Assembly: GCA_963726435.1 (NCBI GenBank)
Contig: CAVSCJ010000005.1
Location: 81,452 to 145,451, forward strand
Direction of reading: 5' to 3'
Source of the DNA: an uncultured Coriobacteriia bacterium
GTDB taxonomy: Bacteria > Actinomycetota > Coriobacteriia > Anaerosomatales > PALSA-660
DNA length: 64,000 nucleotides
Shown here: one piece after another, positions 13,147 through 50,638 of the stretch
Layout of the letters: every line of letters begins with the position of its first letter
Numbering within the stretch: the stretch's first letter is position 1
Notes under the pieces: model-generated
The model's input: only the letters and a program-made list of their open reading frames with translations
Told to the model about the DNA's origin: nothing
Database searches by the model: none
Made by a program: the position numbers and the translations under genes

Positions 13147-13207
13147 CGCAGCGAAGGGCGCCGGATCTTCCGGCGCCCTTCGCTTGAGGTCTCTTGCCCT
13201 TGACCTG

Positions 13208-23901: not shown

Positions 23902-24756
23902 ATGTGCCAGTTCTGCGTGCAGCACGGTGATGGCAAGTCATGGTATCTCCAGGCCAGCGCCTACGCCTACGACCTCGACAGCGATCTGAAGAGGCGCGAG
24001 TACCTGCTCGACTTCGTGAAGGACTTCGGACGCGGCCGCACCTTCGCGCTCACCAACCTCGACCGCCTCGAGAAGCTGCCGGCGCCTCTGCGCGACCTGG
24101 GCCGCGGCGTCGCCAGCGCGCGCATGAAGCTCTACCACTACGGGCAGCCGGTGCCCATAGAGGAGTGCGAGGCGATCTTCGATATCGCGACCTCGGTCGT
24201 GCGGATCCCATGCCCGTGCCGCTATGAGGCGGGGACCAAGGACGAGGGGTATTGCCTGGCCATCACGACGAAACCGATCGACGGAGTCCTTGACGAAGCC
24301 TTCGCGGACTACGAGGTCGGACCGGATCTGGCGAAGTTCGAGCGGCTGACCAAAGAGCAGGCGGTCGCGCTGCTCCAGCGGTCAGAGGGAGAGGGATGCA
24401 TGCACTCGGTGTGGACCTTCGTCACGCCGTTCATAGGCGCCATCTGCAACTGCAGCCTGGAGTCGGGCTGCATGGCGATGCGGATAACGGTCGAGCACCA
24501 GACGCCGATCATGCTGAAGGGCCACTACCTGGCGAGCGCGAACCTCGAGGAGTGCGTGGGCTGCGCCGAGTGTGTCGAGCGATGCCCATTCTCGGCGATC
24601 GCTATCGGCCCCGGCCACAAGCGCGCGATCGTCGATGCTGAGAAGTGCTACGGCTGCGGGGTCTGCCGCTCCGCTTGCGAGTACGGCGCCCTGTCGCTGC
24701 GCGAACGCGAGGGTGCTCCCGGGGGCCTGCTGGTCGCGAGCGCCGCGACCGCTTAG
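23902..24756 (+). CDS. 4Fe-4S dicluster domain protein with an uncharacterised Cys-rich N-terminal domain.
   Basis: N-terminus MCQFCVQHGDGKSWY, then PCPCRYE and ICNCSLESGC. Two ferredoxin motifs: CVGCAECVERCP and CYGCGVCRSACE. Confidence 0.8.
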   Translation: MCQFCVQHGDGKSWYLQASAYAYDLDSDLKRREYLLDFVKDFGRGRTFALTNLDRLEKLPAPLRDLGRGVASARMKLYHYGQPVPIEECEAIFDIATSVVRIPCPCRYEAGTKDEGYCLAITTKPIDGVLDEAFADYEVGPDLAKFERLTKEQAVALLQRSEGEGCMHSVWTFVTPFIGAICNCSLESGCMAMRITVEHQTPIMLKGHYLASANLEECVGCAECVERCPFSAIAIGPGHKRAIVDAEKCYGCGVCRSACEYGALSLREREGAPGGLLVASAATA

Positions 24757-27275
24757 CCGAGCGGGCCCGCCGGCTCTCCCAGCTCGATGCGGACCGACTC
24801 CGGCGCGACGCTGCACAGCAGATCGGCCATCGCGGGATGGCACGTGAGGAAGACGACCTGCCGACGCTCGGAGAGGTCGGCGACGGCCTCGGCCGCGGGC
24901 CGCAGCCGCTCGGGGTCGAAGTTCACGAGAACGTCGTCCATCAGGACGGGGAGTCCCGCGGCGACCTCCCCGAGCTGATCGACCAGCCCGAGGCGCAGTG
25001 CCAGGTAGAGCTGCTCGACGGTGCCTCGCGAGAGCCTGTCGGGAGTGATCGGGGCACCCGAGGAATCGAACACCTCGATGTCGTTCGTGCCCAGAGGGAT
25101 CGCGATCCTCGGGTAGCGTCCGCCGGTCATTCGGCTGAGCGCGGCCTCCGCGCGTTTGACGACCTCCGGCTGCCGCTCGAACTCGTAGAGTCTCTGGGCG
25201 CGAGACATCAGTTCCGAGGCCAGCGCCAGAACTGCGTAGTCCTGGACGGAGACAGCGATCTTCTCCGTCGCCGTCTCTTCTTCGAGGCGCAACACGGCCA
25301 AGCGGTCCTCCCGGCCCTCTGCGGCGATCCTCGCCCGCAGGGTCGCGGCCTCGTCGGTCAGGGCCTCGACAGCCCGCAACGCGTCGTCGGCCTCGAGCCG
25401 CGCGACGGACTCGAGTCTGCGCGCCTCCTCGATGCCCCCCTCGGCCACTCCCGCGGCGGCCAGTTCCGCCGAGACCGACCCGACGAGATCCTCCGACCGC
25501 TTCGACTCGAGCGACGCCTCCCTGTCGAGACGATCGGCGAGCACGAGCGCCTCTGCCCGGAGGCGCTCCGCTTCAGCCGCTGACTCGACCCGGGCCGAAG
25601 CGCGTCCGACCAGTTCGATGCAGCGATCGGCCGACACTGCATCGGGCTCCTCGCCCAGGAGCGGAGCCACCTCCGCTCGCACCCGCCCGACGAAGAGCGC
25701 GACACGCTCCCCATCCGATGCGATCCTCTCCCTCACGCTCTTTCGCTCGCGGTCGCCCAAGCGCACCTCGCGCGCGGCCTGGAGGCGGGCCTGTACGGCG
25801 GCCGGCCTCTCGACGCCGGTACCCAGCCCCCACGCGCGAACCTGCTCTGACCACGCGGCGGCGCGCTCTTCGAGAGCGCGTGTCGCACTCTCAGCCGCGG
25901 CGCCGGTCGTGGCGCAGCGGGTGAGCGCGGCATCTCTGCCCGTGCCGGCGACCGGCCGTGCCGTTCGGACGAACAGGAACGCCACCCCGGCCACAGTGAC
26001 CACGCCGGCGAACACGGCGAGGCTGGCCTGCCCGAGCGCCAGACCGGCGACGAGACCGGCGACTCCCAGGGCGGCCGCCACGACCGCAGGCAGCGGGAAC
26101 GTGCGGACGAAACCGGCTCCTCCGTCCCCGTCCGTTCCGCTGCCGGCCGCCTGCGCCGCGGCGCTGTCCCGCGCCTCCGACGCGACATCCGCGCGGGCGC
26201 TCAGCTTGTCCAACTCCGCGCGCGCCGCCTCGATCTCCGCGGCGAGGCCATCGTCGGCCGTCGCGGCCAGCGCCTGCTCCTCGGACCAGCCGGCCCCGTC
26301 CAGCGACGCGCGGATGCGCCCCTCCAGTTCGATCAGCCTGCTGCGCTGCTCCGCGAGGGCGGCGAGCCGCTCGCCGAAGGCCGGAGCGTCCACCACCAGG
26401 CCGCGCACCGCGTCGGCGAGCCGCGCCGCGTCGGCATCGGCCGGCACCGCGTCCGCTGACGCACGCGCTTCTCCGGCCTGTCTTGCCAGGTCCCGTGCCC
26501 CGCCGGCGGCGGTTGTCGACTCCTTCACCATGCGGTCGGCCTCGGCCACGGTCCGGGCGAGCAGTTCGGCGCGCGACTGCGTCTCCACACGCGAACGCCT
26601 GGCCGACTCGATGCGCTCCCCGACGTCCGCGAGAAGAACGGCGTCCGCTCTCAAGCCGTCCGCCTCGCTCTCGAGCTGGCGGATCCCGGCCCGCACGACG
26701 TCCCGGTCCGACTTGGCCTTGTTCACCGCCGACGTGGTTCCACGCCTCTTCCACAGCGCGTCCATCCGTTCGGCGAGCTCCGTGCGGATATCGGCCGGGC
26801 TGACCGCGAGACCCGCCCCCGCGGCGTAGAGCCGGGACATCAGGTCGGCATCCTTGCCCTTGAGCTGGTCGAGTTGCTGCATCTCTGAGAGCCCGAAGCC
26901 GAGCACGACCCGGTAGGCACTCCGGCTCACCCCGCGGACGAGCTCGTCGACAAGACCGTCGCGCGGAGGGCCGGACAGCGCGTGCACCGTCACCGCACCG
27001 CCGTGCGGCCCCTCGATGCGCTCGACGACCCACTCTCCGCCGTCATCGCGGAACACCAGCCTGCCCTGCCGCTTACCCCCGGACGCGGGCAGGTACGGGT
27101 TCTCGTCGCCGCGCTGCGTCGGAAAGCCGTAGAGCACGTAGCGCACGAAGGCCGTGAGGCTGCTCTTCCCGGCTTCGTTGGGCCCGACGACCACGGTCAG
27201 TTTCGGCGACAGGTCGCCCACGCGGCAGCCGCCGATGCGGCCGAAGCGCTCAGGCTCGATGCGTGCCAGCCTCAT
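24753..27275 (-). CDS. YhaN/SbcC-like AAA ATPase with a long coiled coil and a central hydrophobic hairpin.
   Basis: 840 aa from ATG 27275, which overlaps the upstream stop as ATGA. Walker A GPNEAGKSS, Ala/Arg/Glu-rich coiled coil, C-terminal SRGTVEQLYLALRLGL and PVLMDDVLVNFD. Confidence 0.85.
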   Translation of the reverse strand: MRLARIEPERFGRIGGCRVGDLSPKLTVVVGPNEAGKSSLTAFVRYVLYGFPTQRGDENPYLPASGGKRQGRLVFRDDGGEWVVERIEGPHGGAVTVHALSGPPRDGLVDELVRGVSRSAYRVVLGFGLSEMQQLDQLKGKDADLMSRLYAAGAGLAVSPADIRTELAERMDALWKRRGTTSAVNKAKSDRDVVRAGIRQLESEADGLRADAVLLADVGERIESARRSRVETQSRAELLARTVAEADRMVKESTTAAGGARDLARQAGEARASADAVPADADAARLADAVRGLVVDAPAFGERLAALAEQRSRLIELEGRIRASLDGAGWSEEQALAATADDGLAAEIEAARAELDKLSARADVASEARDSAAAQAAGSGTDGDGGAGFVRTFPLPAVVAAALGVAGLVAGLALGQASLAVFAGVVTVAGVAFLFVRTARPVAGTGRDAALTRCATTGAAAESATRALEERAAAWSEQVRAWGLGTGVERPAAVQARLQAAREVRLGDRERKSVRERIASDGERVALFVGRVRAEVAPLLGEEPDAVSADRCIELVGRASARVESAAEAERLRAEALVLADRLDREASLESKRSEDLVGSVSAELAAAGVAEGGIEEARRLESVARLEADDALRAVEALTDEAATLRARIAAEGREDRLAVLRLEEETATEKIAVSVQDYAVLALASELMSRAQRLYEFERQPEVVKRAEAALSRMTGGRYPRIAIPLGTNDIEVFDSSGAPITPDRLSRGTVEQLYLALRLGLVDQLGEVAAGLPVLMDDVLVNFDPERLRPAAEAVADLSERRQVVFLTCHPAMADLLCSVAPESVRIELGEPAGPLG

Positions 27276-28519
27276 CGCGCACCGTCCTCGAGCATCTCGA
27301 GGCACAGATCCCGCGCCCGGAGCAGCAGCTCCTCCTGCGACAGATCGCGCTCCACCACGCCGACGGTCGACTCCAAGGGCGCCAAGATCTCTGCGAGCAG
27401 CTTCTCCACCCCACCCTGCTCGGCGGCCAGCTCGTCGACCAGGCGGACCAGGTCGCCGGCGAAGTCCTGCGACCCCCGGAGCCGATCGATGTCGAGGCAG
27501 GCGGCCGTGTGGTCGGAGACGCGGTCGATCCAGACCCACGGATCGGCGGCGAGCTGCTCCCCGCGCAGTTCCGCGAGCAGGTCGGCCATCTCCGTCCCCC
27601 GGACGAGTGCTTCGTGGGCCTCGCTGCGGCCGGTCATCTCGATCCGGGCGATGGCCGGCCGCCCGTCGGCATCCGCGCGCACCTCCTCGCATGCGCGGCG
27701 CAGCAGATCCCGGACGTCCTCGGCGTCAGCGCACGTCGAAGCGTCCACGCCGGCGCGGGACCACACTATCGAGCACAGGGGGCGGAACTCGACCGTCGCA
27801 CCCGACGGACCGACCTCGACGAGGTAACAGCCGTGCGCGCCCGTCTCCTTGGGATTGAGGCCCTGCGGGCTGCCTGCGTAGACGATCGCGGGCGAGGTCG
27901 AGAGGACCTCCGGCTTGTGGATGTGCCCGAGCGCCCAGTAGTCCATCCGCGCCCCGCGCAAGGCCTCCATCGAGGCGGGCGCGTAGTCGAGGTAGCCCTC
28001 GCGGCCGCCTACATTCGCGTGCAGCACGCCGATCGCGATACCGCCGCCTTCGAGCCGGCGGAAGCCCGAAGCCAGGTCGCGCTTCTCGGCCGCGTGCTCG
28101 TAGCTGCGCCCGTAGAGGGTGCAGAGAAGCTCTCCGTCGCGTTCGACCGGCACGGCCTCGACCTCGGCGGTGGAGAAGTACCGGACCGTCCCGGGAAGCG
28201 CCGGGCCGGAGGACCAGGCGTCGGCCGGATCGTGGTTGCCGCGAGAGATGTAGACCGGGATGGCGGCGTCGGCCAAGCGCTGCATCGCCGCCTGGAAGCG
28301 GAAGCGCGCCGGAGTGCTCTTGTCGCCGCCGTTGAAGACGTCGCCCGCCAGCAGCAGGAAGTCGACCTTCTCTTCAAGGGAGAGCGTGACGATGCGGTCG
28401 AGCGACTCGGGGATCGAAGCCACCAGCGCCGCCCGCACGCGAGGGTCGGAAGCGTCGACGCCCGAGAACGGAGCACCGAGGTGCAGGTCGGCTGCATGCA
28501 CGAATCTGACGGGCCGCAT
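27272..28519 (-). CDS. YhaO/SbcD-like metallophosphoesterase (DNA repair exonuclease family).
   Basis: FVHAADLHLG, LLLAGDVFN, ISRGNHD, GVLHANV and ALGHIH calcineurin-like motifs. ATG 28519 follows GGGGAG. Confidence 0.87.
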   Translation of the reverse strand: MRPVRFVHAADLHLGAPFSGVDASDPRVRAALVASIPESLDRIVTLSLEEKVDFLLLAGDVFNGGDKSTPARFRFQAAMQRLADAAIPVYISRGNHDPADAWSSGPALPGTVRYFSTAEVEAVPVERDGELLCTLYGRSYEHAAEKRDLASGFRRLEGGGIAIGVLHANVGGREGYLDYAPASMEALRGARMDYWALGHIHKPEVLSTSPAIVYAGSPQGLNPKETGAHGCYLVEVGPSGATVEFRPLCSIVWSRAGVDASTCADAEDVRDLLRRACEEVRADADGRPAIARIEMTGRSEAHEALVRGTEMADLLAELRGEQLAADPWVWIDRVSDHTAACLDIDRLRGSQDFAGDLVRLVDELAAEQGGVEKLLAEILAPLESTVGVVERDLSQEELLLRARDLCLEMLEDGAR

Positions 28520-28707: not shown

Positions 28708-28766
28708 GCGCGGGCTGAAGTATGCAGGCATGAGACCGCAGCCAGCGCAAACACAGGGAGATGAGC

Positions 28767-30101
28767 ATGGATCGTATGCGGACCGTCATCATGGGCGCCG
28801 CCGGGCGCGACTTCCACGACTTCCAGGTCCTGTACCGCGACGACCCCTCCGTGGAGGTGGTGGCGTTCACCGCCACCCAGATCCCGGGGATCGACTGCCG
28901 GACCTACCCCGCAGCGATCGCCGGCCCGCTCTACCCCGACGGTATCCCGATCGTCCCCGAGGCCGGTCTGGCCGAGCTCATCCGTGAGAAGGACATCGCG
29001 AAGGTGATCTTCGCCTACTCGGACGTGTCGCACCTCGACGTCATGCACAAGGCGTCTATCGTCCTGGCCGCCGGGGCGGACTTCGAACTTCTCGCTGCCG
29101 AGCGCACCATGCTCGCCTCCACCAAGCCCGTGATCTCGATCTGCGCCGTCCGTACGGGCGTCGGCAAGTCGGGCATCTCTCGCTACGTTTGGGAGCTGCT
29201 CGCCGAGCACGGCCTTCGCGGCGTCGACATCCGCCACCCCATGCCCTATCGCGACCTCACGACGATGCGTGTCGAGCGCTACGCGTCCCTGGCCGACCTG
29301 GACGAACTCGGCGTGACGCTCGAGGAGCGCGAGGAGTACGAGCACCTCATCCAGGTCGGCGCGGTCGTGATGGCCGGCGTCGACTACCGCGACATCCTGC
29401 GCGCGGCCGAGGCGGAGGCCGACGTCGTGATCTGGGACGGCGGCAACAACGACACGCCTTTCGTACGCCCGGACCTCGAGATCGTCGCGCTGGACCCTCA
29501 CCGCCCGGGACACGAGAGGCTCTACCACCCCGGCGAGGTCAACTTCCTGCGCGCGCAGGCGCTCGTCATCAACAAGGTCGACACGGCGGACCCGGCCAAC
29601 GTCGCCGATCTTCGGGAGGCAGCCAGACTCTACAACCCGGGCGCGACGCTGATCGAGACGGACTCGACGGTGGTGGTCGCCGGCGGGGACGAGCAGCTGC
29701 GCGGGAAGCGCGTGCTCGTCATCGAGGACGGGCCGACGGTCACCCACGGCGGCATGCCCTACGGCGCTGGAGTCGTGGCCGCGCGGCGCGCGGGCGCCGA
29801 GATCGTCGACCCGCGACCCTACGCGGCCGGCTCGCTCCGGGAGGTCTTCGCCTCTTGGCCGCACATCACCGAGGTCCTGCCCGCGATGGGCTACTCCCCT
29901 GAGCAGCTGGCCGACCTGGCGGCCACCATCGCCGCCGTCCCCTGCGACGCCGTAGTCATCGCCACGCCGATCGACTTGAGCCGACTCATCGACATCCCAC
30001 AGAAGGCGGTGCGCGTCACGTACGGCGTCGCCGATCGCGGCGAGCCGACGATACGCGGACTCGTCGAGACCTTCCTGCGCGAGCGCAGGCTGATCGCCTA
30101 G
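28767..30101 (+). CDS. COG2403-type P-loop protein (resembles cyclic 2,3-diphosphoglycerate synthetase; also seen annotated as a predicted GTPase).
   Basis: RTVIMGAAGRDFHDFQVLYRDDP.VEVVAFTATQIPGI, VIFAYSDVSH, KPVISICAVRTGVGKSG, RHPMPYRDL, TLEEREEYEHLI, VIWDGGNNDTPF. The start is 28761, 28767 or 28776. Confidence 0.75.
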   Translation: MDRMRTVIMGAAGRDFHDFQVLYRDDPSVEVVAFTATQIPGIDCRTYPAAIAGPLYPDGIPIVPEAGLAELIREKDIAKVIFAYSDVSHLDVMHKASIVLAAGADFELLAAERTMLASTKPVISICAVRTGVGKSGISRYVWELLAEHGLRGVDIRHPMPYRDLTTMRVERYASLADLDELGVTLEEREEYEHLIQVGAVVMAGVDYRDILRAAEAEADVVIWDGGNNDTPFVRPDLEIVALDPHRPGHERLYHPGEVNFLRAQALVINKVDTADPANVADLREAARLYNPGATLIETDSTVVVAGGDEQLRGKRVLVIEDGPTVTHGGMPYGAGVVAARRAGAEIVDPRPYAAGSLREVFASWPHITEVLPAMGYSPEQLADLAATIAAVPCDAVVIATPIDLSRLIDIPQKAVRVTYGVADRGEPTIRGLVETFLRERRLIA

Positions 30102-30786: not shown

Positions 30787-32130
30787 CTACTTCAGCAGCA
30801 CGCTCGCTGTGACCGTCTTGGCGCCCAGCCACCAGGAGAACGCCGGCAGCTCCGCCTTGAAACGGTAGACGCCCTTCCGCATGCCCTTCTTGAATGCGAA
30901 GGTGCACTTCCAGGCGCCTGCGCCACCGGACGAGTATACGCTGTGGCTGTGATACCGGACCCAGGTGCTGGAGCCCGGCTTCTGCACGTAGACGGTGTAG
31001 GCCCGGCCGACCGCCGCCCCCGGCGTGACCACTCCTCGCAGGGTGATTCTGCGTCCTACGTGCGAGTGGCCTGCGCTCGCCTTGATCGTCAGACTGGACT
31101 TCGGCCGGACCAGTGAGATCTCGTCGAGGACGGCGGACGTCCCGGACACAGTCTCGGTCGGGCTGAGAGTCGTGGTGCCGCCGGCGAGCCGGACCCAGAC
31201 GCGAGCCCTGACCGCGTCCGGCGGCGACTTGGTGAAGATCGACATCTGGCGGAACGATGAGGCGTTGGCGCCCGCGACATCGCCGCTCGTGTGGGTCGTC
31301 AGCACCGAGGCCCCGACGGCGTCCAGGTACTCGAGGCGGAACTCCAGTCCCGCTGGGTCGCACGTCGTCCGCGCCCACGCCGAAACGCAGTAGCTCGTCT
31401 CCGGGCTGATCGTGACGACCTGCGACATCCAGGCGACGGACGACCGGCTGGCGCTCGTGTTGAGCAACTTCGCCGAGTTGTGCGTCGACTTCACCGGAGT
31501 CTTGAGGTGCGCGGTCACGGTCGTGTCGTGGGAACCGGAGAACGACCACCACACGGCCTCGTTGCGCCAGGTTATGCGGGAGAGCGCCCACACGTCGAAC
31601 GACCCGTTGCGCAGGAGGTTCGACGGCGGCGCGCTCGCCTGGATGCGGTTGTAGCGGCAGGCGTGGTAGCCGGCGTCCAGATCGCTGGCGATGTACTTGA
31701 TGTTCGTGACCGTGCCGGACGCGTTGCTGGAGCTGGTCTGCTCGTATGTGACGTACATCGTGTGCGAGTCGTCCACCCACCCGTAGAAGATCCGGATGTG
31801 GCCGACCTTGTGCAGCGCGTCGCCGGGCTGGAGATCGGCCACGGCGATCCTGTGCGTGACGTGGTGGAACGAGGAGGTCGACCAACCCGGCTTCGAGGTG
31901 GCCCAGCACATCGACGCGTAGCCGGAGCAATCAGTGCGGTAGCCGAGGTAGGTCCTGTGCTGGCTGTAGTGGACGTGCTTGTCCATCCACGTCTGCGCGC
32001 GAGCGAGCACGGTCGCGCGCGTGATGGCGAAGGCGCTCGGCGCGCAGAGCAGGGTGAGGGCCAGAACGAAGAAGATCGCAAGGCCGGCGACCCACGCGTG
32101 CGAATGCTGTCTTCCCGCTCGGCTTACCAC
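30787..32130 (-). CDS. Secreted multidomain protein: N-terminal papain-like (NlpC/P60-like) domain, a CBM-like jelly-roll domain and a C-terminal Ig-like domain.
   Basis: Signal peptide ...LLCAPSAFA. Putative Cys/His pair in TDCSGYASMCW and GHIRIFYGW. Central NLLRNGSFDVW... region typical of CBM4_9-like modules. Confidence 0.7.
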   Translation of the reverse strand: MVSRAGRQHSHAWVAGLAIFFVLALTLLCAPSAFAITRATVLARAQTWMDKHVHYSQHRTYLGYRTDCSGYASMCWATSKPGWSTSSFHHVTHRIAVADLQPGDALHKVGHIRIFYGWVDDSHTMYVTYEQTSSSNASGTVTNIKYIASDLDAGYHACRYNRIQASAPPSNLLRNGSFDVWALSRITWRNEAVWWSFSGSHDTTVTAHLKTPVKSTHNSAKLLNTSASRSSVAWMSQVVTISPETSYCVSAWARTTCDPAGLEFRLEYLDAVGASVLTTHTSGDVAGANASSFRQMSIFTKSPPDAVRARVWVRLAGGTTTLSPTETVSGTSAVLDEISLVRPKSSLTIKASAGHSHVGRRITLRGVVTPGAAVGRAYTVYVQKPGSSTWVRYHSHSVYSSGGAGAWKCTFAFKKGMRKGVYRFKAELPAFSWWLGAKTVTASVLLK

Positions 32131-32293
32131 GCGCACCTCCCGCGACGTTCAGCGTACACCCCCTACCGCCCGTCATCGGCACGCGAGGGCTGACGCGGGA
32201 GGGCCTGCGAGCCCGTAAGCGCGCGACACCTCGCGCCGGCGACAGCAGGCCCTCGAGAGCCTCCGGGGATGCCGGCTCCCGCGAGCGCGCGGT

Positions 32294-33613
32294 CTACCCT
32301 TCCGGCTCCGGGAGGAGTTCGCGCTCCATGTCCTCTAGCCGCTCCAGCTCACGAGTGGCCCACGACACCTCTTGCTCGGCCTGAGTGCGACGGGCGCTCA
32401 CCGCAGCGGCGCGCTCGAGTTCGACCGCCTCGCGCACGCGGGCCTGATCCTCTTCACGCTCGCGTTCGTGTTCGACGTAGGCCTCGATCCCCTCACTCAG
32501 GCGTTTGAGCCCCTCCAGCGCTCCGTGCAGCACGTTCAGCGAGGACGCGGTGTCATCCAGCCCGAAGGAAGCCAGCAGTCGCCCGAGCTCCTCCCGGCGA
32601 TCGCGCTCCTGGTCCCGCTCTGCTTCGACGGCGGCGAGCTCGCGTTCCTTCGCCTTCGTGAAGGCGGACGAGACCGCTCTGCGGGCCTTCAGGTCCGCGA
32701 TCGTCTGCCGGTATCGCATCGATTCGGAGTGCCGCCGTTCTTCGCTCTGGCGCCTGCGGTCCTTCTGCTCTTGGAGCTGCGACTGCACGCGAGCGAGCTT
32801 GCTCTTGAGCTCGTCACGCTCCTCGCACAGGACCCGCAGCACCTCGGGTCTGTCGCCACCGCCGATCTGGATCTGGCCGATCGTTCCAGCCTGCTCCCCA
32901 GCGAAGCCCGGGGCCTGCGCGGACTCCGCCGCCTGCGCGTCGAGACCGCCGCGCAGGAACTGGAGCTCACCCTCGCGCTTGACGGGCGACCCGGTGCCTG
33001 CGCTACGGCGCAGGCGTCGCTCGCTCCATCCGAACCCTCTCTCGCGGCCGGCCGGCGCCGGGGCTGCTTCCGGCTGGGCATCGAAGGGGCCTTCCGGCTC
33101 CTGGAGCTCCCGGGGCTCCTCTAGCGCCGCGGGAGGGTCGGGAACCGCAGCGATGCGCGCCGGAACGCCGCGGTGGCTTGCGGGCTCTGCATCGGCCGGG
33201 CCGGAGTCCCCGGCTGCGGCCTGGGATGCGGAGTCGGTCTCCGCGGCGGGAAGGATGGCGCGCGCCGAAGCGTCGTCCGGCAAGTCCGCCCCGACGGCCA
33301 TCTCGGGGCCGGCGGCGTCAGCCGCTTCGTCCTCGGTCTCCGGTAGCGTCTGCTCGTCCGCCGGAGGATCGTACGGCCGCTCGGCAGTGGCTTCTTCCGA
33401 AGCAGCGTCCTCCGCCGGAAGGTCGCCTGCGGCTGCTTCTTCCTGCAGAGCGCCCAGCTCCGCCTCAAGGTCTGACTGGGCCTCATCTTCAGGCTCCTGC
33501 ACGAAGATGCTCTCCGTGAGCGCGAGCGCACGGTCGAGGTCGCCGGTGGCGATCGCCGCGAAGACCTGATTGACCTGCACAGCCTCCTGCGGCAGGGCAT
33601 CGAGGTACCTCAT
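32294..33613 (-). CDS. Hypothetical acidic, disordered protein with a C-terminal coiled coil.
   Basis: ATG 33613 follows GGGGGAG. 439 aa. The long Asp/Glu/Ala/Pro-rich middle has no TM helix. The C-terminal heptad-like region is ELKSKLARVQSQLQEQKDRRRQSEERR... Confidence 0.6.
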   Translation of the reverse strand: MRYLDALPQEAVQVNQVFAAIATGDLDRALALTESIFVQEPEDEAQSDLEAELGALQEEAAAGDLPAEDAASEEATAERPYDPPADEQTLPETEDEAADAAGPEMAVGADLPDDASARAILPAAETDSASQAAAGDSGPADAEPASHRGVPARIAAVPDPPAALEEPRELQEPEGPFDAQPEAAPAPAGRERGFGWSERRLRRSAGTGSPVKREGELQFLRGGLDAQAAESAQAPGFAGEQAGTIGQIQIGGGDRPEVLRVLCEERDELKSKLARVQSQLQEQKDRRRQSEERRHSESMRYRQTIADLKARRAVSSAFTKAKERELAAVEAERDQERDRREELGRLLASFGLDDTASSLNVLHGALEGLKRLSEGIEAYVEHEREREEDQARVREAVELERAAAVSARRTQAEQEVSWATRELERLEDMERELLPEPEG

Positions 33614-33832
33614 GTGACGCTCCCCCGCGCCGGTGGAGCCACGGTCACATGTGTCGCATCCATACTTGCCCTTGATTCCGTCGCCGATTCGGCGAGATTC
33701 TGCCCATCGCGGATACACGACCAGTCCTAGATATCGGCCTGGTGCGCGCTTGCCTTGAGCCGAGAACCTCGCCTGCTGCGCCAAGGCGCCCAGACCGGCC
33801 CAGACCAGATGAAGCGAGGCCGGCTCGCGGGG

Positions 33833-38567: not shown

Positions 38568-40097
38568 TCACAGCTCCCGGCCTTCGGCGGATGCCGCGGC
38601 GGATTCGCGGACCGGGCGAACACCAAGGCGCAGCCTCTTTCGTGTCACCTTCCACTCCAGCGGCAGCCCCAGTGCCAGGTTGGTCTGCGCGTCGAGCGCG
38701 GGCAGCAGGCCGAACGCGATGCCTGCGACCGGAAGGAGCGCCCACATCTTCGCGATCTCGAGCGCCGCCCACATGAAGTGCCGGTCGCCAGGCGGGAACC
38801 GCACGACGTCGATCGCCATCGACGTGACGATCACGACTGTGGAGACCGTGAACAGCCCTGTGACCAGAATCGCGAGCGCGCCGGGCGGGCGAAGGAGCAC
38901 AGGCATCAGAGAGAGACTCGCCGCCGCGCTGAAGCCGACAACCGGCAGCACGTGGTCGTGAAGGACCTGACCCAATCGGAGCCAGACCGATCTGTCCGTC
39001 TTCCCTGAAAGCAGTTGCCCGGCGAGGAAGCCGACATCCGCGGCGCCCCAAGCATGCCGTCGCAACTGCACGTAGCGGTTGCGCAGCGCCGAGAGCCACG
39101 TGTCGCCCTCGGCCGAGTCCAGCGACACGGGAAGGTAGACGGGGACAACGGAGACGTCTCCTCCGCGCTGCACCATGTAGTCCAGGTAGATGTGCCAGTC
39201 CTCAGCGATGACCGCGGGGTCCCACCAGTCGCACTCCTGGGCGAGGCATAGGCTCATCGTGTACGTCGAGATGGGAAGCGGATCGTATCCGGGAAGGGTC
39301 AGCTCGGCCAGGACGTACAGTTGCGTCAACCGCGCTGTGAACCGCACCGGGGCCGGTACCCGCCACATGTTGTTGTGGTAGAGGAGCGGCGCCTGCCAGA
39401 AGCGGGTGTGCCGGCGTTCGTCGCGGGCAAAGAGCTCGGCGACCGCGGCGAAGTAGTTCGGATCGACCACGGAGTCGGCGTCGCAAGCGGTCAGCGTGAC
39501 GAGCGACGACGCGACGCCCATCCTCTCCAGCTCCTCGCGCGCCATCCGGGCGGCCCACCGCAGATTGGCCGCCTTGACCTGCAGCTCGCCCGGAAGGCCG
39601 TCGGGATGGATGGTCACGAGGACGTGCGCGAACGCGGCCGCGTACTCGCGCGCGAGCGTGTCCCCTTTCGCAGCCGAGCCGGACTCGCGCTCCTCCATGG
39701 CGAGCACGACCACGAGGCGCTCCGGCGCATCGCCCTGAGCGGCGAGCGCGTCGAGCGTCCGGCGCAGGACGGGAGCGGGCTCCGTGTGGTTCGGCACCAG
39801 CACCACATGCCACACGTCCGCCGGCGCTATTCCGCCTGGACCGGGAACGTCCCGCGCGGCGCCCCAGTCCTTGAGCCGCCACCGCCGGCAGCGCTGCACG
39901 CCGACCGTGTAGAGGAACAGGTGGGCGGTGATCCACACGACGAAGTAGGCGAAGAGGACGGCAGCGATCCACATCCACTGCAGCGGGAACAGCGCGAGCC
40001 CGAAGATCATCGCGATGACGACCGTCCAAGAGACGGCCGCTGGGAGAGCTTCCCCCATACGGATCCGCACCGATCGGACCCGGGTTGATGCAGTCAC
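38568..40097 (-). CDS. Integral-membrane GT2-family glycosyltransferase.
   Basis: N-terminal TM pair, catalytic region VVLVPNHTEP...LTACDADSVVDP...QAPLLYHNN...RRHAWGA, C-terminal TM cluster. GTG 40097 follows GAAGGGGA; ATG 40058 is an alternative start. Confidence 0.8.
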   Translation of the reverse strand: MTASTRVRSVRIRMGEALPAAVSWTVVIAMIFGLALFPLQWMWIAAVLFAYFVVWITAHLFLYTVGVQRCRRWRLKDWGAARDVPGPGGIAPADVWHVVLVPNHTEPAPVLRRTLDALAAQGDAPERLVVVLAMEERESGSAAKGDTLAREYAAAFAHVLVTIHPDGLPGELQVKAANLRWAARMAREELERMGVASSLVTLTACDADSVVDPNYFAAVAELFARDERRHTRFWQAPLLYHNNMWRVPAPVRFTARLTQLYVLAELTLPGYDPLPISTYTMSLCLAQECDWWDPAVIAEDWHIYLDYMVQRGGDVSVVPVYLPVSLDSAEGDTWLSALRNRYVQLRRHAWGAADVGFLAGQLLSGKTDRSVWLRLGQVLHDHVLPVVGFSAAASLSLMPVLLRPPGALAILVTGLFTVSTVVIVTSMAIDVVRFPPGDRHFMWAALEIAKMWALLPVAGIAFGLLPALDAQTNLALGLPLEWKVTRKRLRLGVRPVRESAAASAEGREL

Positions 40098-40256
40098 AGA
40101 GATCCCCTTCGAGGTGGCCTGAAGACGATGATGAGTGAACGGAGCTTCTTGGGGACAAGACCACACAGGAAACGCACGGCACTTCGCGCGCGTCCAGTGC
40201 CTGACCACACACTAGACTGTTGTCTACCCCGATGGTCCGAGAGAGCGGCTGCCCAC

Positions 40257-41754: not shown

Positions 41755-43296
41755 CTACAAGTCTCGCAGCGTGTCGAGGTAGGTGCGGTATTCGGGGTCG
41801 CGCATGAACTCCCGGATGCGGCGCCGGCCCTCGGCCAGGAAGCTCGTGGGCGCGAACTTGTACTGCACGTGCAGCCATGCCCACGACGCCGCGCGCTCCC
41901 GAAGAGGCATCCGTGCGAGCTCGGCGAGCTGCGCTTCGCCGAGGCGCCTGAATCGCCCGAGTGCGCCTCGCACCGCGGCCGCGACGATCCGAGGGAGCGA
42001 GTAGAAGCGCCGGTACGCGCGTTCCACGTGCCCCTGCATCTGAGCCGCTGTCATGTTCTGGGGACGTATCGCGACGTGCATCCCGTCGAAGAAGCGAAGC
42101 CCGTCGAGGGTCTTGAACAAGACCGCCCCCACCGACTCGTGCTCGGCGGTGCGCTTCGTCCCGGGAAGCGGCGTCTCGAACAGGTACTGAAGAGAGCTGA
42201 CGCAACGTCTCGCGAACTCGCCGTCGTGGCGGATCACTTCTGCAGTGTCCTCGACGAACGCGATGAACATCCCGTGGACGAGCAGGCCCTGTCTCCGCAT
42301 CGCGCGCAGAGCGCGGGCCGTCCTCGTCGAGTCCGCCTTCTTATGGATCCGTGCGAGGGCTTCGTCGCTCGCGGATTCCACCCCGACGCACACGACGGTC
42401 ACCGCGGCAGCGCGCTTCAGCAGCCTGAGGAACTCCTTGTCGATGCGGCCGTCCCCGGCGAAGACCGAGTCGGCGCGCAGTTGCGTAACCAAGATCCGTG
42501 CGAAGCCGTGCTGAGCGACCGCTCTGAGGAAGTCCTTGAACGCGTGCTTGTCGGCCGCCGCGTTGTCGTCGATGAGGAACGCCGTCCCGAACCCCTGGGC
42601 CTGGGCCTCGAGGAGTTCGCCCAGCGCTTGTTCATCACTCCGTACCGTGTAGCGCGGCCAGATCTGGCAGACCTCGCAGAAGTCGCAGCGCTGAGGACAA
42701 CCCCGCGCCCTCCACACCGCTGCGACGTCGGCCCGGCCGTAGTCGTGGACGAGCGTGCGGTCCACGCGCGGCAGCGCGTCGAGTTCGGCGCGGGTCAGCT
42801 GCTCGGACGGCGGACCCTGCAACGTCGTCGCCCCGGTCCGCCACACGAGACCGGGAATGTCGGCGAAACGCTCGTCGCCCCGTCCGCACACGACGGCGAG
42901 GAACCGCGGGAGCGTCCGCTCGGCTTCCCCACGCAAGACGAAGTCCGCGCCGATGTCCAAGCTGCGCTCGGGCGCACACGTGGGCTCGGGGCCGCCGAGC
43001 ACGATCGTTGCCTGCGGATTTAGGGCGCGAGCGTGTTCGAGCAGGTCGCGCGTGCGCGGGAGCGTGCATGTGATCGCCGAGAAGCCGACGACGTCACAAG
43101 AGGCGACGTAGTCCCAGTCGGTCGAGTCCTTGCCGCTGACGTCCTCGATGAAGGCGCGCACGTCGTAGCCGGCCTCGCGCACTACGGTAGCCAGTATCGG
43201 CGCGCCGCGCCCCATGGCGACGCCCGTGTAGATGTTCAGCCCCGGCGAGCCGGCCTCTATGATGGCCACCCGGCGCCCGCCTTGCCCGATACCCAT
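41755..43296 (-). CDS. B12-binding-domain radical SAM protein.
   Basis: N-terminal Rossmann-like B12-binding region (VVGFSAITCTL...IVLGGPEPT), followed by RGCPQRCDFC (CxxxCxxC). Confidence 0.85.
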   Translation of the reverse strand: MGIGQGGRRVAIIEAGSPGLNIYTGVAMGRGAPILATVVREAGYDVRAFIEDVSGKDSTDWDYVASCDVVGFSAITCTLPRTRDLLEHARALNPQATIVLGGPEPTCAPERSLDIGADFVLRGEAERTLPRFLAVVCGRGDERFADIPGLVWRTGATTLQGPPSEQLTRAELDALPRVDRTLVHDYGRADVAAVWRARGCPQRCDFCEVCQIWPRYTVRSDEQALGELLEAQAQGFGTAFLIDDNAAADKHAFKDFLRAVAQHGFARILVTQLRADSVFAGDGRIDKEFLRLLKRAAAVTVVCVGVESASDEALARIHKKADSTRTARALRAMRRQGLLVHGMFIAFVEDTAEVIRHDGEFARRCVSSLQYLFETPLPGTKRTAEHESVGAVLFKTLDGLRFFDGMHVAIRPQNMTAAQMQGHVERAYRRFYSLPRIVAAAVRGALGRFRRLGEAQLAELARMPLRERAASWAWLHVQYKFAPTSFLAEGRRRIREFMRDPEYRTYLDTLRDL

Positions 43297-46140: not shown

Positions 46141-47112
46141 GTGGGTTGTGTCGAGACAGAAGAGACTTTCGATTCGCGGATCTCGGAACTGGACGAGTCG
46201 TCTCGGCGCGGGTTGGATCTGCGCGCCCTGACCGTCAGCGTGACGCTACGATGCAACCAGGTGTGCTCGCACTGCCATGTGAGCGCCTCGCCTTCACGAG
46301 GCGAGATGATGGGCGCGGACACGATGGCGCGAGTCGTTGAAGTCGCGTCGGACCTCGGTCCCGAGGTCGTCGACATCACCGGTGGGGCGCCCGAGCTCAA
46401 TCCCCTCCTGCCCGACCTCCTCCGCGCGCTTCGCGCGCACGGACACCGCGTGCAGCTCCGCACGAACCTGACGGTACTCGCGGACCCCGAACATGCAGCG
46501 CTGGCTGGCCTCTACGCTTCTTCCGGGATCGAGCTGCTCGCGTCGCTGCCGTGCTACACCGTCCGCAACGTCGACCTGGGCCGTGGCCCGGGAGTGCACG
46601 ACCTGAGCGTGCGGATGCTGCTCGCGCTCAACGCGCTGGGGTACGGCACGGATGGCGGACCCCGGCTCGACCTCATCTACAACACCGTCGGTACGACCCT
46701 CCCCGAGCCGCAGGCCATGCTGGAGGAGCTGTTCCGCGAAGAGCTGGCCGCGAGGTTCGGCATCGTCTTCACCCACCTGCTCACGATGACGAACATGCCG
46801 GTAGGGCGCTTCCGCGACCGTCTGATCGCTGAGGGAGGATACGATCGCTACCTTCGCGCACTGCGAGAGGCCTTCAATCCGGAGGTCGTCCCCTTCCTGC
46901 AGTGCAGGCACCAGGTCGAGGTCGGATGGGACGGGCGGCTCTACGACTGCGACTTCAACCTCGGGCGGGGGATACCCGTGTCGCACGATGCGCCCCCGAC
47001 GGTGTGGGAGTTCGACGCCGAGGCCCTGGCGACGCGGCGGGTGGTCCACTCCGTCCACTGCTTCGGCTGCACGGCGGGCGCGGGATCGAGTTGAAACGGC
47101 GCGCTGACATGA
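46141..47112 (+). CDS. arsS: Radical SAM/Cys-rich-domain protein of the ArsS (rSAM/selenodomain) type. The in-frame TGA at 47092-47094 is read as probable selenocysteine.
   Basis: TLRCNQVCSHCHV (CxxxCxxC), DITGGAPELNP, ASLPCY, MTNMPVGRF, LYDCDFN. The C-terminus is HCFGCTAGAGSS-TGA-NGALT-TGA, and the family motif is GSS[C/U]GG. GTG 46141 follows GAAGGGA. Confidence 0.8.
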
Positions 47113-47126
47113 CCGGTCCGGTCAGC
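47103..47126. other. Palindromic stem-loop GCTGAC-N12-GTCAGC (inner alternative TGACC-GGTCC-GGTCA) between the convergent arsS and arsM-like genes. Candidate SECIS for arsS and/or a bidirectional terminator.
   Basis: Read directly from the sequence. It starts 9 nt after the arsS TGA and spans the second TGA. Confidence 0.4.
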
Positions 47127-47137
47127 CGCACCTGCCG

Positions 47138-47866
47138 CTACGAGGGCTTCGCCGCCAGGAACGACGCCCAGTAGGTGTAGTCGTTCCGGGGGTTGGGGCG
47201 CTCGTCGAGTTGCTCCGCGACGAACCCCACCGACTCGAGCATCGCCTTCAACTCCGCCGCCGGCAGAGCGCCCGAGATTCAAAGCGACCAGCTGTCCGGG
47301 TCAGCCGACACCTCGGCCGCCTTCTCGGGCTTCAGGACGGCGTCGCACAGTGCGAGCCGCCCGCCGGCGCGGAGCACGCGGTGAGCCTCGGCGAGGAGTT
47401 CCGGCTTCCTCGGCGACAGGTTGAGGCAACCGTTCGACTGGACCGCGTCGAACGCGCCGTCGTCGAAGGGCAGGCGCTCCGAGGCGTCAGCCAGCAGGAA
47501 GGTCACCGGCGCGGAAGGCGCCATCGCCGCCGCCTCGCGTGCCCGCCCGATCATCTCGGGAGTGATGTCCACGCCCACGACTTCACCCTCCGGTCCCACG
47601 GCAGCCGCCGCCACCAGAGCGTCGAGGCCGCCGCCGCAGCCGATGTCCAGTACTCGCTCGCCCGCGGTGAGCCGCGCGAAGGAGGCCGGGTTCCCGACCC
47701 CCACGAACGACTCGAGCGAAACCACCGGGATGCCGTCGAGAGTATCGCCGTACCCCAGGTACTCCGCGCAGCGGTTGCCGGTCCACACGCCGAAACCAGC
47801 GTCGATGCCGAGCGCCACCCGGGAGAAGCGCTTGAGGACCGAATCGGTTATCTCGTCCGCCTGCAT
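47138..47866 (-). CDS. arsM: ArsM/UbiE-type SAM-dependent methyltransferase. The in-frame TGA at 47279-47281 is read as probable selenocysteine.
   Basis: VLDIGCGGGLD, VVGVDITPEMI, FDAVQSNGCLNLSPRK, RVLRAGGRLAL. The ORF stops at TGA after DSWSL, but the frame stays open through ISGALPAAELKAMLESVGF...AAKPS to TAG 47138. ATG 47866 follows GAAGGGGAG. Confidence 0.72.
47251..47269 (-). other. Candidate SECIS-like hairpin G-CUCUGCC-GGC-GGCGGAG-U, 10 nt downstream of the arsM-like UGA.
   Basis: Stem of 7-8 bp including one G-U pair, folded by eye. No covariation or predictor support. Confidence 0.3.
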
Positions 47867-47876
47867 GGTCTCCCCT

Positions 47877-49208
47877 TCACCGTGGATGCCGCCAGCCGTC
47901 GAGGACCGCCGGGTCGATGCCGAACCGATACCCCGCGATGATCGCGAGGTACGCCGCGGACGCACGCACGACGCCTCCTTCGTTCCAGCGGCGGCTCGAA
48001 GTGAGCGCGCGCTGGGGCAGGATCCGCACGGAACCGAGCCGCATGATCCTGCGCGAGAGCTCCCAGTCTTCCATCACCGGCTGCGTGGGGTAGCCGCCCA
48101 GGTCCTCGAAGGTGCGCTTGGTCATGAAGAGCGCCTGGTCGCCGTAGGGGACTCGGAAGACGGCCATCCTCATCCGGCCGGCGAGGGTGAAGAGGCGGGC
48201 CAGCGGCGTGTCGTACGTCCCCCAGCTGAAGGCACCCCCGCTGGTCCCTTCGGCGGACAGCGCTCGGCACACCAGTGCGGCCGACTTGGCGGGCAGCGTG
48301 GTATCGGCGTGCAGGAACACGAGCGCATCGCAAGTCGCCGCCCTCGCCCCCGCGTTCATCTGCCCGGCACGGCCCCGCGGGGCGTCGATCACTCGGGCGC
48401 CGGCGCTCCTGGCTGCGTGCGGCGTGCCATCCTGGCTTCCTCCGTCGACCACTATCACCTCGCGAGCGCCTCCGCTGAACGCGCTGCTCACGGCGGCGCC
48501 CACGCGATCCGCCTCATCGAGCGCGGGGATGACCACCGAGACCGAGGCAGGGGGAGTCCGCTCAAGACGGCGCTCCGCCTCCCATAGGGGGAGGTCCTCC
48601 GGGCGGTCCACGTCGGCCAAGCGGTCGGCGAAGCCGACGGTCAGACCAGCCTGCCCGGCACGGCGCAGAGTGTCGCGGAAGACCGTGTCCGCACCCCACT
48701 CGATCCCCTCGAACAGTACCGGGAGTCCTCGATGCGCAGCGCGCGCGCTGACGCCGAGAAGCCAGTAGCCGCCGTCCTCGGCGGGACCGATCACCACGTC
48801 GTGCGTCGCGAGTTGTCGCAGCGCCGCGCGCACGTGTGTCGCGCGCGCGGCCGGGCAGTCCGAGCCCACCACGACCGCCGAAGGAGCGCCGGACCGGAAG
48901 GAAGACGACATCGCCGAGCGCAGCCGGTCGCCCAGGTCGCCCTCCGGCTGCGGCGCGAAACGCGGCCAGTCGCCCAGCCACGCCGCGACTTCGCCGGGCG
49001 ACCCGCCATCGACGTGAACCTCGATATCAGCGTCGCCGGAGGCCTGCAGCGGCCTCATCCGCGAGACGCAGTGGGCCGCGAGCTCGCGGTGCAGCGCCGC
49101 CGCGCCCTCCGCGCCCAGCCGCGGGATCAGGCGGCTCTTCACCTCGCCGGACCTGGGGAACCGGGCCACGACAGCGACGACGGGCCGCTTGCGGGATGCC
49201 GCCGTCAC
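47877..49208 (-). CDS. Fusion of rSAM/selenodomain-associated transferase 1 (DUF2064/TIGR04282-like) and transferase 2 (GT2, TIGR04283-like).
   Basis: N-terminal half: VVARFPRSGEVKSRL, VVGSDCP, IGPAEDGGYWLLG. C-terminal half: VSVVIPALDEA, VIVVDGGSQDGT, RGRAGQMNAGA, FLHADTTLP, YGDQALF, MEDWELSRR, TSSRRW. GTG 49208 overlaps the upstream stop as GTGA. Confidence 0.85.
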   Translation of the reverse strand: MTAASRKRPVVAVVARFPRSGEVKSRLIPRLGAEGAAALHRELAAHCVSRMRPLQASGDADIEVHVDGGSPGEVAAWLGDWPRFAPQPEGDLGDRLRSAMSSSFRSGAPSAVVVGSDCPAARATHVRAALRQLATHDVVIGPAEDGGYWLLGVSARAAHRGLPVLFEGIEWGADTVFRDTLRRAGQAGLTVGFADRLADVDRPEDLPLWEAERRLERTPPASVSVVIPALDEADRVGAAVSSAFSGGAREVIVVDGGSQDGTPHAARSAGARVIDAPRGRAGQMNAGARAATCDALVFLHADTTLPAKSAALVCRALSAEGTSGGAFSWGTYDTPLARLFTLAGRMRMAVFRVPYGDQALFMTKRTFEDLGGYPTQPVMEDWELSRRIMRLGSVRILPQRALTSSRRWNEGGVVRASAAYLAIIAGYRFGIDPAVLDGWRHPR

Positions 49209-50638
49209 AGCTCGGCCTTGAAGTCGTTGTGTCCCACGAGTATCCGGAGCGCGCCTCTCAGCGCGGGGTTGTCCCGCAAGTGCTCGGCGTACTCGGCGTC
49301 CGCCGGTCGCTTCACGGCGTCGGCGAAGGTCGGATAGGCGTGCAACACCGATGAGAGCGAGGAGAGCGGCATGTCGTTGTGGAGCAGGATCGCGGCCTCG
49401 TTGATCAGCTCGCCCGCGCGCGGCCCCAGGATGTGAGCTCCGAGGAGGTGCCCGCGATCGTCGAGGACGTACTTCGCGACGCCATCCGTCGCGGCCTCGG
49501 TGCGGGCGCGGTCCTGAGTCGAGAAGTCGTACCGGCGAACCCGGACCGAGTCACCGTACGCCTCGTGCGCCTGCGCCTCCGTCATGCCGAGATGCGCCAG
49601 CTCGGGCTCCGTGAACAGCACCCACGCGATGTCCCTCCAGGCGACCTTGGGTCCGACCGGCAACAGGGCGTTGGTGGCGGCGGCGATCCCCTCGCGCTCG
49701 GCCGTGTGCGTGAAGCGATAGGGGCCGGTGACGTCACCCGCGGCGAAGATGTGGCGCGCTGTCGTCCGCATGTGAGCGTCGGTGACTATGCCGCGTTCTC
49801 CGACCTCCACGCCGGCGGCCTCCAGCCCTTCAGGGACGACCGGCATGCGGCCGGCCGCCACGAGCAACCTTTCTGCCTCGAACTCCCTGCCGCCTCCGAC
49901 CAGAACGACGCCGCCGTCACGCGGTTCGACGCGCTCGAGAGGAACGCCCGTCACGATCTCGACTCCCTGCGACGCAAGCACCGCCCTGAGCCGTTCGACA
50001 AGCTCCGGCTCCTCCGCGCGCAAGAGCTCGGAGCGCACCAGCATGGTGACCCGGGTCCCCAGTCTCGTGAACGCGGAGGCCATCTCGACCGCCACCGGCC
50101 CGCCGCCGAGGATGGCCAGCGACCGCGGCAGCACATCGATGTCCCACAGGGTGTCAGAGGTGAGCGCCGCGGTCTCGTCCAGCCCCGGGACCCGAGGGAG
50201 GAGCGGCCGGGAGCCGGTGGCGATAACAAAGCGGCGTCCCACCAACGTACGACCGCCGACCTCGACCACGCTCGGCTCCACGAAACGGGCCTCGCCCGCA
50301 AAGACCTCGAGGCCGTAGCCCGCGAGGACTTCCGCTGAGTCGTGCTGGCCGATCTGCTCCCTCACCGAGCGCACGTGAGCCATCACGCCCGACGTGTCGA
50401 TCCTGAAGGGCCCGTCCGGCGCAAGGCCGAACCGTTCCAGCTGATCCGGGACCGAGGCGGCACGGGCCGCCGCGAGCAGGGTCTTGCTGGGCACGCAGCC
50501 GCGCCACGTGCACTCCCCGCCGAGCTGTCCGCGCTCGACTATGGCGACGCTCGCGCCGAGACCTAGACCCACGAGCGCCGCTGTCCGACCGGCAGAGCCC
50601 GAGCCGAGCACCACTAGATCGAATCGCGCCTCTTCCAC
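49205..50638 (-). CDS. Pyridine nucleotide-disulfide oxidoreductase (dihydrolipoamide dehydrogenase / mercuric-reductase-like class I).
   Basis: DLVVLGSGSAG, redox-active GGECTWRGCVPSK, ILGGGPVAVE, AAGDV, C-terminal HAYPTF. Confidence 0.88.
   Translation of the reverse strand: MEEARFDLVVLGSGSAGRTAALVGLGLGASVAIVERGQLGGECTWRGCVPSKTLLAAARAASVPDQLERFGLAPDGPFRIDTSGVMAHVRSVREQIGQHDSAEVLAGYGLEVFAGEARFVEPSVVEVGGRTLVGRRFVIATGSRPLLPRVPGLDETAALTSDTLWDIDVLPRSLAILGGGPVAVEMASAFTRLGTRVTMLVRSELLRAEEPELVERLRAVLASQGVEIVTGVPLERVEPRDGGVVLVGGGREFEAERLLVAAGRMPVVPEGLEAAGVEVGERGIVTDAHMRTTARHIFAAGDVTGPYRFTHTAEREGIAAATNALLPVGPKVAWRDIAWVLFTEPELAHLGMTEAQAHEAYGDSVRVRRYDFSTQDRARTEAATDGVAKYVLDDRGHLLGAHILGPRAGELINEAAILLHNDMPLSSLSSVLHAYPTFADAVKRPADAEYAEHLRDNPALRGALRILVGHNDFKAEL

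Follow-up and report, generated by a model that had tools for sequence, protein, structure and literature searches.

The window analysed here, a 64,000-nt stretch (68% GC) of contig CAVSCJ010000005.1 from an uncultured Coriobacteriia bacterium, carries an arsS gene of the radical S-adenosylmethionine (SAM) type that contains an in-frame TGA close to its 3' end. This TGA (47092-47094) is most probably a selenocysteine (Sec) codon, and the hairpin that follows it (47110..47124) is most probably its selenocysteine insertion sequence (SECIS); the convergent gene of an ArsM-like methyltransferase appears to be recoded in the same way. The probability of this reading is estimated at about 0.88. In the alignments, the UGA of both genes stands at the Cys column of the respective family, and the UGA, the reading frame downstream of it and the hairpins are conserved across the sequences of an actinobacterial clade. 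The actual insertion of Sec into ArsS and the methyltransferase is a step that we infer from these sequences, since the Sec machinery was not seen within the window and the related loci.

The arsS reading frame across the in-frame UGA

The arsS gene had been described in an earlier note, which was made from the sequence alone, as an open reading frame (ORF) at 46141..47094 on the forward strand, and it was found at exactly these coordinates. The ORF starts with a GTG, the first start codon past the upstream stop, contains the radical SAM motif CNQVCSHC (residues 38-45), and ends with HCFGCTAGAGSS-TGA. Reading through the TGA adds the five sense codons AAC GGC GCG CTG ACA (N-G-A-L-T, 47095..47109) before a second TGA at 47110-47112, again as noted. 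The coding sequence including the internal UGA spans 46141..47112 (+) and encodes 323 residues with the Radical_SAM and DUF3641 domains and the C-terminus HCFGCTAGAGSS-U-NGALT, in which the putative Sec is residue 318. The proposed ArsS identity was borne out by the NCBIfam model TIGR04167 ("arsenosugar biosynthesis radical SAM (seleno)protein ArsS"), which matched with 349.9 bits (curated cutoff 300; E = 1.1e-104) when the UGA was entered as Cys. The alignment joins residues 26-322 of 323 with model positions 6-303 of 303, and it spans the read-through tail. Pfam analysis of the protein gave 46.2 bits for Radical_SAM and 154.1 bits for DUF3641 (134/134 model positions). The C-terminus in full, C-F-G-C-T-A-G-A-G-S-S-U-N-G-A-L-T, fits the consensus CxxCxAGxGSS-[Cys/Sec]-x-G. 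By these matches the gene is a member of the ArsS family, and its enzyme activity on dimethylarsenite (DMAs(III)) is predicted. In the reaction of ArsS, the 5'-deoxyadenosyl radical and DMAs(III) give DDMAA (5'-deoxy-5'-dimethylarsinoyl-adenosine); according to PMC13598754 and PMC12159101, with reference to Cheng et al. 2021, this activity is established for cyanobacterial and other ArsS enzymes.

The arsS homologue set consisted of the best 120 matches from 5.8 billion proteins. The calls of all 51 closest homologues (57-100% identity) stop at G-[ST]-[SG], in nearly every case GSS, and so does that of P0070 (62% identity, 78% of the query); the remaining 68, all of which share at most 56% identity, continue as GSS-C-x-G-[AS]-[LI]-x. 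The TGA sits at the Cys/Sec column of the family, as had been proposed, and the distant homologues carry Cys exactly there. The opposite outcome raised in the earlier note, a family motif that ends at GSS with no Cys or Sec after it, is not what the 120 homologues display. The order of residues given there, GSS, Cys or Sec and then Gly, was right for GSS-[C/U]; however, the Gly lies two residues past the Cys/Sec (GSS-[C/U]-x-G) and is not adjacent to it. The Cys form was also seen in DNA, for example in the Cyanobium locus L005 (GSS-TGC-GGG-GGC). The public call of the window's own arsS (P0001) has 261 residues from an internal Met, so the CxxxCxxC motif is not part of it.

The clade DNA consisted of 10 related actinobacterial-type loci from three sources. 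Four are from GTDB genomes labelled Coriobacteriia or "uncultured Actinomycetes" metagenome-assembled genomes (MAGs), three are from a metagenome scan, and three were obtained by exact-protein look-up (L126, L127 and L128). All 10 loci keep AGT-TGA, followed by AAY/AGC-GGY-GCN/TCC-CTN-NNN-TGA. All five third positions of the tail codons vary across the relatives; the Gly and the Leu of the family consensus x-G-A-L-x are invariant, and the pairwise codon differences comprise 88 synonymous vs 51 non-synonymous ones. The second stop is TGA in all actinobacterial-type relatives, and sequence similarity among the clade loci fades right past the arsS hairpin. A constrained tail of this kind, with a conserved second TGA, is what a translated sequence closed by a real stop looks like, and not what is seen in a 3' untranslated region. 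Every sampled member of this clade, which is known from MAGs only, has the Sec form; no Cys-form member was among those sampled.

Sec-form genes of the wider family were collected by the metagenome scan, in which 77 of 120 stretches were true arsS 3' ends. The search pattern drew on the coding sequence upstream of the TGA only, and therefore it carries no bias toward downstream structure. All 77 Sec-form 3' ends have GSS-UGA, then 2-10 sense codons (usually 4-5) and a stop, and their tails are a short x-G-x-x-x before the real stop.

The hairpin downstream of the arsS UGA

A stem-loop with a GGUCC-type apical loop had been noticed past the UGA. It is a perfect 15-nt palindrome, TGACCGGTCCGGTCA, at 47110..47124 (+), and it is conserved in the relatives. 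The palindrome folds either as UGACCG-GUC-CGGUCA, with a 6-bp stem and a GUC loop that begins 21 nt past the UGA, or as a 5-bp stem with a GGUCC loop, and the real stop of arsS lies in its 5' arm. The published criteria for bacterial SECIS (bSECIS) elements (PMC13188914) include a loop of 3-9 nt, a stem of 4-16 bp, a G at loop position 1 or 2, a distance of 16-37 nt between UGA and loop, and a free energy of -7.5 kcal/mol or lower. In the lengths of its loop and stem, the place of the G and the spacing (21 nt), the arsS hairpin falls within these rules. Its core, GACCGGUCCGGUC, is invariant in 9 of the 11 clade loci. In the two variants the GACC/GGUC stem is retained, and the loop alone differs (AGUUCG in L030 and GGUC in L078); the ungapped alignment within the clade misregisters both of them. 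The palindrome occurs once in the whole window. A dispersed repeat or operator was also considered and rejected, given this single exact copy and near matches at chance level.

Single-sequence folding energy says little in DNA of 68% GC, and comparative tests were therefore used instead. The covariation alignment contained 44 unique Sec-form arsS 3' ends from many lineages, anchored at the UGA and ungapped. Pairing between columns 19-24 and columns 28-33 amounts to 72% of cells, and to 83% once one divergent clade is left out; slid controls, with the partners moved by 1-3 columns, gave 28-45% pairing. None of 2000 column shuffles reached the observed pairing, and each of the covarying column pairs is realised by 3-5 standard base-pair types. 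A scan of possible hairpin centres gave a single peak at loop column 25 (0.86 vs at most 0.61 elsewhere). Moreover, in most bacterial lineages among the metagenomic Sec-form arsS genes, the apical loop begins 19-23 nt past the UGA and the 5' arm contains or adjoins the real stop (UAG, UAA or UGA). The hairpin loops across lineages are GGC, GGU, GGUC or GUC.

Other arsS loci also stood out in this comparison. A Sec-form clade of the type ...GMGSS-UGA-QG[T/A]TA-stop is without the hairpin at +21 (L012, L014, L020, L021, L023, L028, L038, L041, L058, L084, L092, L114 and L120). In several of its members (L014, L021, L038, L041, L114 and L120 among them) there is instead a stem whose start coincides with the codons CCAC(A/G)G, some 8 nt past the UGA; this stem closes at a variable distance and has 13 bp in L114. 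The clade could represent a different bSECIS class or eukaryotic algal transcripts. In addition, the Cys-form arsS of L130 (about 2940-2990; P0054) has 5/6 pairs on the SECIS columns, in a hairpin around its stop codon, which could be the relic of a recent Sec-to-Cys switch or could have arisen by chance.

The convergent methyltransferase and the arsenic cassette

A second gene with an in-frame UGA converges on arsS. It encodes an ArsM-like SAM methyltransferase of 242 residues including the internal UGA (47866..47138, -), and its best NCBIfam matches are ArsM selenoprotein models. The in-frame UGA (47281..47279, -) would encode residue 196, in the context W-S-L-U-I-S-G-A-L. The frame continues past it for 46 codons to a TAG at 47140..47138, 25 nt from the arsS stop. 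The start of the protein, M-Q-A-D-E-I-T, is conserved in the relatives, and the TGA and the tail are kept in 9/9 relatives that cover the region. Within the tail, the block NPRNDYTxWASF hardly changes, and variation is greatest at third codon positions. The public calls (L126 10827-11555, L127 11064-11813 and L128 11001-11726) give a piece of about 195-200 residues and an orphan ORF of 34-35 residues.

In the homologue search for the methyltransferase, 92 proteins end at W-x-x directly before the U column, and the full-length homologues mostly read W-A-G-C-[ILV]-[SA]-G-A-L (21/28 by the strict CxxGxL pattern). When the U was entered as C, it aligned with the Cys of GEC[LI][AG]GAL in the ArsM structures 5evj and 5eg5/4fr0. 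This column is presumably that of the As(III)-binding Cys224 of CmArsM. The protein scored 172.1 bits with the ArsM model NF008823 (cutoff 263), and all of its matches to NCBIfam ArsM models are below cutoff. It also has FVGVGNP where 5evj has FWGCGNP, so that the N-terminal GCGNP Cys is not present. For these two reasons the protein is named ArsM-like and not ArsM. Compared with the ArsM selenoproteins (NF008823, and the fusions NF041537, NF041536 and NF047649), it shares U-I-S-G at the As(III)-binding Cys column; it differs in being shorter, in scoring below every curated cutoff, and in having GVGNP in place of the GCGNP cysteine. It also lacks the C-terminal domains (AhpD, DUF2284 and UXPK) that the fusion families have. 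Arsenite methyltransferase has been listed as a selenoprotein with the motif UxxG (PMC13188914).

The UGA of the methyltransferase is also followed by a SECIS-type hairpin, GCUCUGCC-GGC-GGCGGAGU (47269..47251, -). It has an 8-bp stem and a GGC loop that begins 17 nt past the UGA, a geometry within the bSECIS rules. Its minimum free energy is -11.3 kcal/mol, which is beyond the threshold, and 0/200 shuffles were as good. Across 10 loci, 97.5% of the cells are paired. One pair is compensated, U-A to C-G: the change in one arm is synonymous (GCU to GCC), and that in the other is non-synonymous (GAG to GGG). The methyltransferase shows the same set of UGA, tail and hairpin independently of arsS, which supports the Sec reading. 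A screen of the window for other in-frame TGAs with coding-like GC content at third codon positions (GC3) on both sides returned the methyltransferase only. The other hits of the screen were discarded as junk frames, and 38570..38568 turned out to be merely a case of two adjacent genes.

Next to the methyltransferase gene lies a fused TIGR04282 + TIGR04283 arsenosugar-biosynthesis glycosyltransferase (47877..49208, -; 177.1 bits with cutoff 134, and 206.1 bits with cutoff 182), whose cluster carries the JGI name 'rSAM/selenodomain-associated transferase 2/1'. It is followed by a flavin adenine dinucleotide (FAD) disulfide oxidoreductase resembling MerA and dihydrolipoamide dehydrogenase (49205..50638, -), with NCBIfam matches that are all below cutoffs. 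The order of arsS, transferase and methyltransferase is shared with L126-L128, and the FAD oxidoreductase is conserved in the cassette with equal gene order in L126 and L127. These four genes, arsS, methyltransferase, glycosyltransferase and flavoprotein disulfide reductase, are the known arsenosugar (rSAM/selenodomain) cassette. In L126, the FAD oxidoreductase is called as two pieces (12893-14328; 315 + 126 residues) and no call covers the glycosyltransferase's DUF2064 half; these calls are likely due to assembly frameshift errors.

Several other genes of the window were also observed. A B12-binding radical SAM protein is encoded 3 kb upstream of arsS (41755..43296, -), and it has weak, far-below-cutoff matches to 'CUAEP/CCAEP-tail radical SAM (seleno)protein' and to ArsL. 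An old yellow enzyme (OYE) flavoprotein and a protein of the metallo-beta-lactamase (MBL) fold are encoded between this gene and arsS. These genes might be part of an extended organoarsenical cluster. Large ORFs with coding-like GC3 are found at 22102..23853 (+), 24756..27692 (-), 28761..30098 (+), 30790..32136 (-), 32297..33784 (-) and 38571..40208 (-). These six have no NCBIfam or Pfam family, or weak domain matches (PQQ-like beta-propeller, AAA_27).

Alternative explanations and significance

If the TGA of arsS is a Sec codon, the first UGA would be translated as Sec at residue 318, ArsS would have 323 residues, and translation would end at 47110-47112. The hairpin UGACCG-GUC-CGGUCA would then act as a bacterial SECIS that opens at the real stop codon. 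It would bind SelB with Sec-tRNA(Sec) at the time when the ribosomal A site is occupied by the first UGA, which lies 21 nt upstream of the loop. The methyltransferase would be recoded alike, with its U at 47281..47279 and its hairpin at 47269..47251. The selenol might bind the trivalent arsenic substrate, which for ArsS would be DMAs(III) ahead of the addition of the 5'-deoxyadenosyl group. This role of the ArsS tail as an arsenic ligand is suggested by two analogies, one with the Cys motif at the C-terminus of ArsL and one with the cysteine of ArsM. ArsL, the radical SAM enzyme of arsinothricin synthesis, also forms a C-As bond, and its C-terminal RCCLKC binds the arsenic substrate (bioRxiv 10.64898/2026.04.29.721666). 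ArsL and ArsS are alike in being radical SAM enzymes that form a C-As bond and have a C-terminal Cys motif, a likeness that appears to be functional only; ArsL belongs to another family (NF040542), uses a 3-amino-3-carboxypropyl (ACP) radical and not 5'-deoxyadenosyl, and has another motif. Alternatively, the CxxC...[C/U] motif of the ArsS tail may provide an auxiliary Fe-S ligand.

Several results weigh against the Sec reading. The arsS core has an energy of -6.5 kcal/mol (15 nt) or -7.3 kcal/mol (26 nt), and the threshold of -7.5 is narrowly missed. Longer contexts reach -8.5 (35 nt) and -16.8 kcal/mol (49 nt) through alternative pairings that are specific to the window. The folding z is -2.05 for the 15-nt core and -0.8 for 49 nt, and the longer contexts are no better than shuffles. 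No covariation of the arsS hairpin was found within the clade, because the core does not vary there. Rfam gave no match in the whole window at gathering thresholds, nor in 46900-47400 at E <= 10, which indicates that no curated model covers this SECIS type. The Cys-form control, which comprises three loci only, had 2/6, 3/6 and 5/6 pairs on the SECIS columns. For the methyltransferase hairpin, covariation amounts to the single compensated pair, which 42/500 shuffles equalled. As for the decoding machinery, ARAGORN detected no tRNA, and hence no tRNA-Sec, in the 64-kb window, and no tRNA gene in the 10 related loci scanned. Similarly, about 30 ORFs of the window were scanned with NCBIfam and Pfam and revealed no SelA, SelB or SelD, and the gene lists of L126-L128 (10-kb flanks) contain no sel-type Pfam family.

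The absence of visible Sec machinery from the window would also suit an explanation in which the first UGA is a real stop, ArsS ends at GSS, and both convergent genes share the hairpin as an element for transcript ends or stability. The gene callers end ArsS at this UGA in every clade member, and the hairpin occupies the 25-nt gap between the two genes. However, the five codons past the UGA keep x-G-A-L-x, vary at third positions and lead to a conserved second stop, and the TIGR04167 model aligns through this tail. Unrelated lineages with other neighbouring genes have the hairpin at an equal distance from the UGA; the hairpin has no U-tract, and a terminator and promoter scan of 46900-47400 found nothing. 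A real stop would also deprive the methyltransferase of 46 conserved residues. Termination at the first UGA is thus considered very unlikely.

Read-through by a standard amino acid, either by near-cognate decoding as Cys or Trp or by a lineage-specific suppressor, would reconcile the clearly conserved downstream frame with a window in which selA, selB, selC and selD were not seen. It is no more probable than termination. UGA is the normal stop of 9 of the 17 other confidently identified genes of the window, a count by which genome-wide reassignment of UGA was excluded as well. Both UGAs stand at catalytic Cys columns of families that are catalogued as selenoproteins, and both have hairpins with a G-first loop at the bSECIS distance. 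Moreover, a simple change from TGA to TGY would yield Cys, but all clade members retain the TGA. That the TGA arose by nonsense mutation (pseudogene), or by misassembly of this one contig, could be suspected only from the public calls, which are truncated or badly started here (P0001, 261 residues). The probability of this is next to nil, as the same TGA recurs in 10 independent related loci and in 51 protein clusters that derive from different samples and assemblers, and 77 metagenomic loci of the wider family have the Sec-form TGA.

The Sec reading also agrees with what has been described for the known systems. The loop of the fdhF SECIS has an essential G and U about 20-21 nt past the UGA, which is near the G22/U23 of the arsS loop. 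Compared with the bSECIS consensus (bSECISearch model; E. coli fdhF type), both hairpins of the window lie directly downstream of the UGA and have a loop of 3-5 nt with G and then U/G on a stem of 5-8 bp. The arsS element is different in that it extends beyond the coding region, with the real stop in its 5' arm, and in that its core is short, with a borderline energy and no Rfam model. The selenoprotein form of TIGR04167 has been listed as 'Radical SAM domain protein, GxxU', with AAR34688.1 as an example (PMC13188914). The arsS of the window shares with this family the CxxxCxxC motif, DUF3641, CxxCxAGxGSS-[C/U]-xG, in which the U takes the place it has in GxxU, and a TIGR04282/TIGR04283 neighbour. 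It differs in nothing of kind; the clade described here is all of the Sec form, and its real stop is always a UGA inside the SECIS stem.

The UGAs of arsS and of the ArsM-like gene are further examples in families already catalogued as selenoproteins. The knowledge of the family is unchanged in this respect, because the curated name of TIGR04167 already says "(seleno)protein". What is added is an actinobacterial clade that is all of the Sec form and publicly misannotated, two convergent selenoprotein genes in one arsenic cassette, and a cross-lineage description of the ArsS SECIS as a short hairpin whose distance from the UGA is fixed and which overlaps the real stop codon. As regards annotation, arsS is cut short at GSS by standard gene callers, and one public call places its start past the radical SAM motif. 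Public protein sets consequently lack two probable catalytic selenocysteines across a whole clade of Actinobacteria from soil and sediment.

If the locus is read as Sec, the lineage must decode Sec, and it would spend Sec on two arsenic-handling enzymes, a small and concrete link between selenium and arsenic metabolism. Both As-C bond-forming enzymes of the cassette would then have become fixed as Sec forms in the clade, with Sec at what is probably the site of arsenic binding. A further suggestion, which is unlikely, is that arsenic is passed from selenol to selenol as Se-As adducts. If this were true, the synthesis of organoarsenicals in these organisms would be selenium-dependent, and its substrates or products might differ from those of the cyanobacterial arsenosugar pathway.

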